A stretch of DNA of 4,393 nucleotides from a virus (IMGVR_UViG_2579778784_000011); one strand, 5' to 3'. Counted from the stretch's first letter, positions 1,990 through 4,393 are shown. Notes: generated by a model not told the origin, from the letters alone. Translations and numbers: made by a program.

Positions 1990-2021
1990 TAAATGACAGG
2001 CAATTAAAAGAGGTCGTATGA
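1731..2021 (+). CDS. displaced tail fibre C-terminal fragment (copy 2 of the duplicated segment in the native phase); likely remnant, not an independent gene
   Basis: Encodes the same 85 residues as copy 1 (MSLSNPSGSY...FRIWHKE), then LNDRQLKEVV and a TGA that overlaps the next ATG (ATGA at 2018-2021). This looks like the original end of the tail fibre gene. Its own ATG overlaps the upstream stop (ATGA at 1731-1734), so reinitiation is possible. Confidence 0.4.
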   Translation: MSLSNPSGSYVNSAATDVFAEKTTFGCIAKADGHFHVVTNGKAVNEVYCEYNGVTADKNIRFGGQTNTGERHLFGHIRNFRIWHKELNDRQLKEVV

Positions 2022-2296
2022 AAGATTTAACTTTGAAGTTTCATGACAAACTGCAGTTTAAGGCCTTCCTGTCATCTCTTGGCTGGGCGGAAGATGAAGA
2101 CCTCCAGAATAAACTGTTAGTTGATGAAATTGGTTTCACCTACACAGAAACAGGGGTAACAGAAGAGGGAGAACCTGTCTGTATCCGGAATGATGGTTAT
2201 TTTGTCAACATTCGCATTCTTGATGACTTGTTTGATGTTTCTGTATTCTCTGATTATGTCGTGGAGCTGGAAACACCGCTTCGGGAATGGAGCTGA
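2018..2296 (+). CDS. hypothetical small acidic protein (92 aa), translationally coupled to the tail fibre gene
   Basis: ATG at 2018 overlaps the native-phase tail fibre stop (ATGA), with AAGAGG a few nt upstream. 92 aa, strongly acidic (about 20 Asp/Glu versus 8 Lys/Arg). No motif recognised. Its 3' two-thirds lies inside the 271-bp duplication. Confidence 0.6.
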   Translation: MKDLTLKFHDKLQFKAFLSSLGWAEDEDLQNKLLVDEIGFTYTETGVTEEGEPVCIRNDGYFVNIRILDDLFDVSVFSDYVVELETPLREWS

Positions 2297-2985: not shown

Positions 2986-3234
2986 TTAGTGAACAAACCA
3001 CTCGTCAGCAGACTCCCAGGTATCTTTCAGAGTTTCCTGAACAAAAGTTTTAGCTGAATCTTTATCGGCGGTGCGCGTAACAGAAAGGCCATCGTTGCTG
3101 GTGGCTTTTACGATCACCTCTACATCGTCATAACGTTTACTGATGCGTCGGGTTAATTCTTCCTTTAACGCATCCACAGCACCGTTTGGCATTTTAGTCA
3201 TTTTTTCTTTGGCTATGCAGATCTCAATACGCAT
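2986..3234 (-). CDS. dinI: DinI-family DNA-damage-inducible protein (82 aa)
   Basis: The translation [82 protein letters not shown] matches my memory of E. coli DinI at many positions (MRIE..IAK, GA.DAL, EL.RRI, LSV, QET, TWESAD.WFV). It is preceded by an AGAGGG Shine-Dalgarno and two LexA boxes. Not verified by search. Confidence 0.9.
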
Positions 3235-3270: not shown

Positions 3271-3299
3271 TTTTTAACTGTATGGATAAACAGTGTCAA
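3271..3299 (-). promoter_or_regulatory. candidate sigma70 promoter of dinI (-35 TTGACA at 3294-3299, -10 TAAAAA/AAAAAT near 3270-3276, minus-strand sense)
   Basis: Minus-strand sequence is cTTGACA-ctgtttatccatacagt-TAAAAAt: a perfect -35 hexamer, a 17-18 bp spacer and an A/T-rich -10 (4/6 match to TATAAT). The -35 hexamer overlaps the integrase stop codon (3296-3298). Confidence 0.5.
3278..3293 (-). promoter_or_regulatory. second LexA box, occupying the -35/-10 spacer of the dinI promoter
   Basis: CTGTATGGATAAACAG (CTGT-N8-ACAG), 12 bp from the first box and directly abutting the TTGACA -35 element. Confidence 0.75.
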
Positions 3300-4393
3300 G
3301 AGGTCTTATTTCTGCTCCTTTGGAGCTCTTCAAAACGATTATGTAAAGATTTCGGATACAGTTCGGTATATACCTGCCATAGCACGTTTAATGAACGATG
3401 CCCTGTAACCTGAGCGACTTCCTCAATACTAAAACCAGCCTCAAATAAGCGACTTGCCCCTTCTCTACGCAAATCATGGTATCGCAGATCTTTAATACCT
3501 AATTTGCTTCTTACCCTCTGAAATCCTGCAGTAACAGAAGTGCTGTTATATGGAAAAATGAATTCCGATTTTTTGGGCTGTCGTTGGACGATATCCCAGG
3601 CTTCCCCAAGCAAGGCTACTTTCATGTGGTTGCCTTCCTTTTTGCGTGGATCTTTCCTGTCTCTTACGAGTATAGATTTTTGTTCCTGGTCGAGATCTTC
3701 CCATCGTAACCGGCATACTTCTCCGATCCGCATACAGGACCACACAGAAAATTTGAGGATATCAACGAACGGAATTTTTGAGCATTTATGAGTAGATCGT
3801 TGTTGAAGGCCTTCAATGAGCATGTCCAGTTCATCAGATGCTGGTCTACGATTACGACGGTTTGATTTACCAATCAAACCAAGTTTAAGTAGATATGGGC
3901 GAGCGCTTTTCGCCGGGTTTGATGTGTAATTAATTCCGTATACAGGTTTGGCCGCATCCAGAACACTGCCAAGATAACTAACATCGTGGCTGACTGTTGC
4001 TGGACCTGCACCAGCGTTGTTTCTTAGCCTGCAATGTTCAATTACGTCATTTTCTGTCAGTTCAGATAGTTTGATCGCGGAGATGTCACTATCCATAAGC
4101 AGTTCCAGCACATATCTTTTAGTACGGCCTGCTTTACCTCCGGCATTTGGGTCATTTAAATATTTGTGTAGTAAGTCACGGACTGTAAGTCCGTCAACTG
4201 CATTTGATGATGGAATGCCATATAGATCTAATTCCATCACTTTCTGTGTTCCCCATGTTTTGGCATGAGCATGTTTAGGGAATGTTTTGCTTTCCCTGTA
4301 AGTGATAACACCTTTTTCTTTGATAATCACATTACAGCGATAGCGTGGTGTGCCATCGGATTTTAGTCGTTTCTCTATGTTATAGTACGCCAT
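3296..4393 (-). CDS. int: phage integrase, tyrosine recombinase family (365 aa); ATG at window edge, apparently complete
   Basis: C-terminal catalytic-domain signature in order: Arg in MRIGEVCRLRWEDL, Lys in KKEGNHMKVAL, HDLRREGASRL (His-x-x-Arg), GHRSLNVLWQVYTEL (His/Trp and the presumptive catalytic Tyr). Size is typical of lambda-like integrases, and it sits next to a tail module and a moron region. Start codon is at 4391-4393; an upstream extension beyond the window cannot be excluded. Confidence 0.9.
   Translation of the reverse strand: MAYYNIEKRLKSDGTPRYRCNVIIKEKGVITYRESKTFPKHAHAKTWGTQKVMELDLYGIPSSNAVDGLTVRDLLHKYLNDPNAGGKAGRTKRYVLELLMDSDISAIKLSELTENDVIEHCRLRNNAGAGPATVSHDVSYLGSVLDAAKPVYGINYTSNPAKSARPYLLKLGLIGKSNRRNRRPASDELDMLIEGLQQRSTHKCSKIPFVDILKFSVWSCMRIGEVCRLRWEDLDQEQKSILVRDRKDPRKKEGNHMKVALLGEAWDIVQRQPKKSEFIFPYNSTSVTAGFQRVRSKLGIKDLRYHDLRREGASRLFEAGFSIEEVAQVTGHRSLNVLWQVYTELYPKSLHNRFEELQRSRNKTS

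Follow-up and report, generated by a model that had tools for sequence, protein, structure and literature searches.

A small gene placed directly after the side tail fibre gene of a lambdoid phage encodes a strongly acidic 92-aa protein, and the family to which this protein belongs is almost always linked to a single fibre module, whatever the backbone, lifestyle or host of the phage. We conclude that the 92-aa protein is very probably a fibre-dedicated accessory protein and, with more reserve, we read its genomic context as pointing to a trans-acting assembly chaperone or cap for that module.

Host recognition begins with lateral and side tail fibres, which bind O-antigen or capsule and which engineers swap to retarget phages or phage-derived delivery particles. 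We found no paper that assigns a function to the small protein: BASEL annotation lists it as hypothetical or as 'tail fiber protein', and the model of the Bas32 fibre omits it (PMC11990801). Tightly linked to a widespread lectin-ended module and without any known relative, the protein may be a fibre accessory of a new kind, a possibility that can be tested directly.

The 92-aa gene overlaps the end of the fibre gene

The stretch of DNA that we analysed (the window; 4,393 nt) comprises the right end of a lambdoid phage late operon and the adjacent dinI–int region. Its features are listed below.

1–1734, + strand: side tail fibre gene (Stf-type), 3′ two-thirds, open from base 1 in frame 1
1–390, + strand: Ala-rich shaft of the fibre gene, with the distal module downstream
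1392–1689 and 1691–1988, + strand: perfect tandem duplication D1 (298 nt, extra A at 1690, period 299)
1731–2021, + strand: ORF for a 96-aa C-terminal fibre fragment with the native end FRIWHKELNDRQLKEVV before its stop; Laminin_G_3 at residues 12–91
2008–2013, + strand: Shine–Dalgarno-like AAGAGG, 4 nt upstream of the ATG and within the last fibre codons
2018–2296, + strand: ORF for the 92-aa acidic protein (PHROG 1361)
2077–2346 and 2348–2617, + strand: perfect tandem duplication D2 (270 nt, extra A at 2347, period 271)
2331–2567, + strand: 78-aa chimeric ORF made by D2, a partial second copy of the small gene
2580–2868, + strand: gene for a 95-aa membrane protein with two TM segments (PHROG 1443), preceded by a strong Shine–Dalgarno sequence, AAGGAGG
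2986–3234, − strand: dinI
3296–4393, − strand: int

Escherichia virus mEp460_4F5 (LR595868.1, 19012–22833) is 99.3% identical to the window at the DNA level, and phage 21 is about 99% identical to it over the fibre region. The fibre gene was assigned from its 99.3% DNA identity to mEp460_4F5 and the match to phage 21, annotated 'side tail fiber', and from a match to PHROG 1419 ('tail protein', E 7e-207). In both mEp460 and phage 21, the annotated gene order is J/central fibre, side tail fibre (686 aa), a 92-aa hypothetical protein and a 95–97-aa membrane protein, followed by DinI and integrase in mEp460 and by sitABCD in phage 21.

The ATG of the 92-aa gene (2018–2020) overlaps the fibre TGA (2019–2021) to form an ATGA, in the sequence GTATGAAA. 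The overlapping stop is that of the 96-aa fibre fragment, whose native end is identical to that of the reference fibres. No sigma-70-like promoter was detected on the + strand between the fibre and the small gene, and related loci have AAGGAGG or GGAG at the position of the AAGAGG of the window. The product contains ten Asp and ten Glu residues (20 in total) against five Lys and three Arg (8 in total), which corresponds to a pI of 4.17 and a net charge of about −12. ORF calling and composition thus reproduced exactly what the earlier note had described, namely a 92-aa ORF with an ATGA overlap and 20 acidic against 8 basic residues.

A conserved family of small acidic proteins

The 92-aa protein matched PHROG 1361 over its full length (hmmscan E 3.2e-42; residues 1–91 on profile positions 1–91 of 92), and among 30 diverse family members all matched phrog_1361 and 23 matched phrog_18574. 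Both PHROGs are entries without a function, and linkage to a fibre module is absent from them. Hundreds of homologues were found, down to about 25% identity, with the extremes at 24–30%. dN/dS was 0.2–0.4 between close pairs, with dS saturated between distant pairs, and the small-gene family is under purifying selection that acts on the protein. The 92-aa ORF is a real gene, beyond chance, and the copy in the window is an ordinary member of a common family. Acidity is shared throughout the family (median pI 4.38 and median net charge −9 for 149 full-length members). Residues M1, D3, L6, D36, N64 and R66 never vary, P87, R89 and W91 hardly do, and F8, G39, G60 and V63 are further conserved positions.

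An AlphaFold2 model of the protein, computed from a 19-row alignment, was confident (mean pLDDT 90.4). The predicted fold, β1(2–8)–α(11–20)–α(27–32)–β(33–39)–β(42–47)–β(53–57)–β(61–67), consists of a five-stranded sheet and two helices; the extended C-terminal tail behind them, which bears the conserved P87-x-R89-x-W91, was modelled with less confidence. Structure prediction followed by a fold search, as the earlier note had proposed, gave a confident model that matched no solved fold in the PDB, and a search of BFVD returned uncharacterised phage proteins of similar size and nothing else. Neither the single protein nor a profile of 30 family members had a sequence relative in Pfam, NCBIfam, PADLOC or the PDB, which agrees with the remark in the earlier note that the protein shows no recognisable motif. 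The sole Pfam match at E ≤ 1, LUD_dom, was judged to be due to chance, and long matches in a search of representative proteins (PKD-repeat and TPR proteins of 985–2744 aa) were set aside as artefacts of composition or repeats.

Linkage to one fibre module

We surveyed the genomic context of the family in about 185 loci, comprising 96 loci from IMG/VR, NCBI assemblies and GTDB, 80 loci of a divergent clade, three distant metagenomic loci and annotated phages. The start of the small gene overlaps the upstream stop, or is separated from it by a 1-nt gap, in about 180 of these. In the first set the overlap is 4 nt (ATGA or GTGA) or 1 nt (TAATG or TGATG) in 95 of the 96 loci; the one exception, L093, has a disrupted fibre ORF, yet directly before its ATG it carries the same bases as L094, its intact sister locus. 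Nearly all upstream proteins of the first set end in a homologue of the last ~435 aa of the window fibre, with a few loci in which only a fibre remnant is present or the end is lost at the contig edge. L093, the sole locus among the ~185 with no upstream fibre match, looks like a degraded fibre ORF that has retained its 3′ end, and not like a fibre-free context. In the divergent clade, both the overlap and the fibre module were present in all 80 loci. One of the three very distant metagenomic loci has a 4-nt overlap and an intact fibre module, in the second the fibre is degraded, but its final codons and the small-gene start still form an ATGA overlap, and the third has its fibre module upstream as well, three small ORFs away.

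The linkage is kept at 24–30% identity of the small protein, in Leclercia, Silvania, Atlantibacter and Martelella, in podovirus-like metagenomic contigs, in an Aeromonas T5-like phage and in Vequintavirus myophages; in the Leclercia, Silvania, Atlantibacter and Martelella loci both fibre and small protein are only 24–32% identical to those of the window. Among cultured, annotated phages, the family follows the lateral or side fibre gene in Drexlerviridae (PeterMerian and many more), Dhillonvirus (KarlBarth, rolling), Queuovirinae (KurtStettler, JenP1/2), T5-like Demerecviridae (IrisVonRoten, SelmaRatti, AKFV33 and an Aeromonas Shenzhenvirus) and Vequintavirus myophages (nomo and about 35 others). 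Start and stop overlap or abut also in the annotated virulent phages IrisVonRoten, PeterMerian, KurtStettler, SelmaRatti, AKFV33 and nomo. Because a family member is present in rV5-like myophages, the pair of module and partner crosses the siphovirus/myovirus divide. The module occurs in roughly 10–20% of complete E. coli genomes, including Nissle 1917, as well as in phage 21, in mEp460-type lambdoids and in many BASEL and therapeutic-type virulent phages.

A reverse search found the fibre module in 223 phage records, compared with 147 records detected by tblastn with the 92-aa protein. Three phages that were positive for the fibre and negative by tblastn (SelmaRatti, nomo and AhP_Mru1) were inspected, and all three carry a divergent family member directly after the fibre; at least part of the difference is therefore a matter of search sensitivity. 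In DT57C, no such ORF was found between LtfA and LtfB. The question posed by the earlier note, whether homologues always follow a tail fibre gene or also occur elsewhere, can thus be answered: the same fibre C-terminal module, intact or as a remnant, lies upstream in almost all loci. Together, these results show that the small gene hardly ever occurs apart from this one fibre module, although the phages concerned have unrelated backbones, different lifestyles and different hosts.

Individual loci show some further features. In the rV5-like phage nomo (locus L187), positions 3796–4128 encode a 110-aa family member of pI 4.05 behind a 1479-aa tail fibre. At 3716–5354 of the Martelella lutilitoris locus (L098), beside xseA, the gene for a 430-aa fibre of this alphaproteobacterium overlaps by 8 nt the gene behind it, which encodes a distant family member of 117 aa. 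In one prophage (L028, 5001–5279), the small gene is cut short by a stop at codon 11. In Leclercia L093 and in the metagenomic locus L182, the fibre is disrupted and the small gene is intact, its start still overlapping or abutting the remnant fibre stop.

The earlier note had also considered that the protein could be one of the small acidic anti-defence or DNA-mimic proteins carried in accessory positions. Such a protein would block a host restriction or defence system. Its small size and the strong acidity of the whole family would suit such a role, the protein (pI 4.17, net charge −12) resembles Ocr and ArdA-type mimics in this respect, and its gene in the lambdoid window is close to where the late operon ends in accessory genes, by dinI and int. 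However, the gene is embedded in, and coupled to, a late structural fibre operon in virulent and temperate phages alike, and is not placed early or among accessory genes, away from structural ones. The family occurs where one fibre module occurs and does not follow host defence repertoires, there was no PADLOC match, no sequence similarity to Ocr or ArdA-type mimics was found, and neither these nor any other mimic appeared among the PDB fold matches. We consider an anti-defence role extremely improbable and find that part of the earlier proposal unsupported.

The partner fibre module ends in a lectin-like domain

The module that accompanies the small gene is the C-terminal ~435 aa of the fibre, an RcGTA head-spike-fibre-like domain followed by a LamG/galectin-like lectin end. 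The window fibre scored 57 bits against NCBIfam NF048003 (GTA_spike_fiber; curated cut-off 36 bits), and the cut-off was reached by all eight partner fibres scanned, the other seven being L001 (55.7 bits), L084 (50), L095 (98.7), L098 (42.1), Bas32 (56.9), Bas05 (55.2) and Bas22 (62.9). The fibre C-terminus gave a weak, sub-threshold match to Laminin_G_3. For the homologue Gp22 of IrisVonRoten, the BASEL authors reported a galectin-like C-terminus that may be a further receptor-binding domain (PMC11990801), and the AKFV33 homologue, ORF137, is a confirmed virion protein (PMC3326045). Pfam scans of four fibres (the window fragment, Bas32, Bas05 and Bas22) detected no Peptidase_S74 domain. AlphaFold prediction of the distal module from a 14-row alignment gave a mean pLDDT of 47, which is too low to use.

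Upstream of the module, the fibre N-termini vary and include the lambda Stf-type phage_tail_N, the T5 Ltf-type and a head-proximal 704-aa protein, with further types in Leclercia, Silvania, Atlantibacter and Martelella; in one E. coli prophage type, the fibre has an unrelated 270-aa N-terminus and the pair lies between head genes and a Peptidase_S74 fibre. The module itself is mosaic, with conserved first ~120 residues, hypervariable central and loop segments and conserved last ~37 residues. In L022, the small protein is 99% identical to that of the window, while the central fibre segments are only 18–30% identical. The small protein therefore does not vary in step with the hypervariable segments and is neither an adhesin nor a tip partner matched to fibre specificity; if it binds the fibre, its target is a conserved feature.

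The same mosaic pattern could mean that the small gene is a passenger of a fibre-exchange cassette, with a role unrelated to the fibre (a late regulator or a host-directed factor), the 3′ end of the fibre gene together with the small gene serving as the downstream homology arm: the last ~37 fibre codons are conserved, and the small gene goes with this flank and not with the variable parts. However, the linkage persists where the proteins are only 24–30% identical and no DNA homology arm is left, in unrelated backbones and hosts; selection acts at the level of the protein; and the start/stop overlap is conserved while the surrounding nucleotides change. A mere passenger is therefore quite improbable.

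A proposed trans-acting chaperone for the fibre end

The context established here allows us to propose a role for the small protein. We suggest that it is the dedicated accessory of one widespread, horizontally exchanged distal fibre module. Its gene is expressed from the late operon of the fibre, and since its start overlaps or abuts the fibre stop at the loci described above, ribosomes finishing the fibre can re-initiate on it, so that synthesis would be coupled, near-stoichiometric and located beside the emerging fibre C-terminus. The compact acidic α/β protein would then bind a conserved part of the module, most plausibly the ~35 invariant residues with which the lectin domain ends (…RHLFGHxRNxRIWHxxLxDxQL), perhaps through its own C-terminal tail (P-x-R-x-W). 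It would act in trans as a folding or assembly chaperone, where other fibres carry Peptidase_S74 in cis, and might stay bound for a time as a cap. Of the chaperone or adaptor that the earlier note had imagined as co-translated with the fibre, the context part is thus strongly supported, by the overlap at about 180 of about 185 loci, whereas clear homology to a known fibre chaperone was not found; the chaperone role is accordingly one that we infer from genomic context.

A bolder version of this proposal, which we regard as distinctly unlikely, is that the protein represents a new structural class of trans partner that clips onto the conserved C-terminal strands of lectin-ended fibres and serves as a removable acidic cap, a general switch for the timing of receptor binding. 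Such a cap would be made one-for-one with the fibre by termination–reinitiation, would silence the glycan-binding head in the O-antigen- or capsule-rich producer cell and on its debris, and would later be released, a timing switch that sipho-, myo- and podophages would have in common.

If the small protein is needed for folding, or gates binding, it must accompany chimeric fibre designs and the production of recombinant receptor-binding proteins. It would also belong in structure predictions of these fibres, where it is now 'hypothetical' or ignored, and it would represent a third, unrelated solution to fibre maturation beside Tfa/gp38-type proteins and S74 domains.

Comparison with known fibre partners

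The proposed chaperone parallels Tfa proteins (lambda Tfa, Mu gpU, P2 gpG; Caudo_TAP), whose genes likewise lie directly after the (side) fibre gene in the same late operon and travel with the distal part of the fibre in exchange, and whose role in folding the distal part is the one proposed here. The earlier note had held that the protein is not a classical Tfa, and our searches agree: Pfam and NCBIfam gave no Tfa/Caudo_TAP sequence match, and the model showed no fold resembling solved Tfa structures (for example, Mu Tfa). The small protein most likely functions like Tfa or gp38 and is unrelated to either.

Peptidase_S74 domains (T5 pb1, K1F endosialidase) would, under the chaperone reading, be alike in serving the fibre C-terminus, and both arrangements can be seen in the same loci, where the small gene follows a fibre that lacks S74 and the next fibre has S74 in cis. 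Unlike S74, the small protein is a separate polypeptide without sequence similarity to that domain (no S74 match in Pfam), and autoproteolysis is neither predicted nor needed.

The tail-fibre chaperones of Alteromonas phages V22 and A5, described as 'transient chaperone caps', are reported to resemble intramolecular chaperone domains (PMC10579305). There, fibre and cognate small partner form one host-recognition module common to morphologically unrelated phage families, much as in the loci studied here, and the idea of a partner that may cap a glycan-binding tip (PMC10579305; also raised in PMC11990801) can be carried over. Our comparison of the small protein with the V22/A5 chaperones covers the Pfam and PDB searches, which gave no match.

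The namesake of NF048003, 'phage head spike fiber domain', is the RcGTA head fibre Rcc01080, which binds capsular polysaccharide (PMC7296036, PMC5026251) and so fits a glycan-binding role for the partner module. Rcc01080 is a relative of the partner fibre and not of the 92-aa protein. It is a single chain of 325 aa on capsid vertices, with capsule genes downstream and no small partner described. When the Martelella fibre was used as the query in seeking a small partner near Rhodobacter/GTA fibre genes, there was no match in alphaproteobacterial phages.

The gene downstream and an adaptor role

The third gene of the arrangement is variable, being the 95-aa membrane protein in lambdoid prophages, a second fibre with S74 in virulent siphophages and one prophage type, and other genes elsewhere. 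The second fibre, with Peptidase_S74 (231–582 aa), follows the small gene in L179 (IrisVonRoten), L180 (PeterMerian), L181 (KurtStettler), L084, L186 and L188. In Bas05 and Bas22, this second-fibre gene carries the BASEL label 'putative lateral tail fiber chaperone', which is probably a mislabelling of a distal fibre.

This arrangement raises the possibility that the small protein is a structural adaptor or virion component that docks on the lectin end of the proximal fibre, joins a second distal fibre to it or decorates the tip. The small gene lies exactly between the proximal fibre and the S74 second fibre in T5-like phages, Drexlerviridae, Queuovirinae and one E. coli prophage type; the BASEL authors describe Gp24 of IrisVonRoten as a distal, T-shaped fibre joined to Gp22, the proximal one (PMC11990801); Bas32 gp23 and Bas34 gp22 are annotated 'tail fiber protein'; and coupled, roughly equimolar synthesis would also fit a structural subunit. 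Yet the small gene is equally conserved without a second fibre gene, in all lambdoid prophages, in the podovirus-like loci L184 and L185 and in Vequintavirus nomo, and the published model joins Gp24 to Gp22 without the small protein (PMC11990801). The only virion proteomics set that we found, for AKFV33, was obtained from four bands of a 10% gel and is blind to a 10-kDa protein. Weighing these points, we consider an adaptor role unlikely, and we retain the chaperone or cap as the preferred reading.

The 95-aa membrane protein ('putative membrane protein, 2 TMDs') is encoded behind the small gene in lambdoid prophages alone and is absent from virulent phages. It is 75–100% identical across the lambdoid prophages (L001–L092) and had no match in Pfam, NCBIfam or PADLOC. 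It may be a prophage-specific add-on, for example with an exclusion or conversion function.

Lesions private to the window

The window carries two duplications and a single inserted base that none of the references has. D1 shifts the frame of the fibre gene, adding 14 aberrant codons and then a stop at 1732–1734; what is left in front of the small gene in the window, the ORF ending at 2021, therefore encodes no more than a 96-aa piece of the fibre, a limitation to which the earlier note alluded only through the word 'native'. The new stop at 1734 happens to form another ATGA, with an in-frame Met at 1731 from which the duplicated 96-aa fibre end could be re-initiated. D2 starts inside the 92-aa ORF yet leaves it intact; the repeated unit contains codons 20–92 of the small gene, the intergenic Shine–Dalgarno sequence and the first 38 nt of the membrane gene. 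The resulting 78-aa ORF (2331–2567) has an out-of-frame start in the first copy of the 5′ end of the membrane gene and continues into residues 21–92 of the small protein, and is very unlikely to be a natural gene. A T-run at 2641–2646 is T6 in the window and T5 in 69 of 69 related loci, and the extra T frameshifts the membrane gene: the frame from 2580 stops at 2702, and the remainder is read in the 2602–2868 frame.

Neither duplication junction was found in 50,697 phage records, 5,426 complete E. coli genomes, IMG/VR or JGI metagenome contigs, and a query spanning the D1 junction split into two separate pieces in all 578 E. coli genomes that it matched. Both junctions have the same pattern, 'copy + A + copy', and this shared form looks artificial or like an assembly artefact. 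The two duplications and the extra T are thus peculiar to the source or else artefacts; in neither case do they alter what the 92-aa gene is.

Beyond the membrane gene, the minus strand holds a 10-bp GC-rich hairpin at 2885–2918 with arms GCCGCAGTA… and …TACTGCGGC and a 16-nt loop, followed by UUUUUACUUUUU. Its folding energy is −16.6 kcal/mol (z = −4.9), and it was missed by the terminator scanner owing to the long loop. The hairpin is a likely terminator of dinI.
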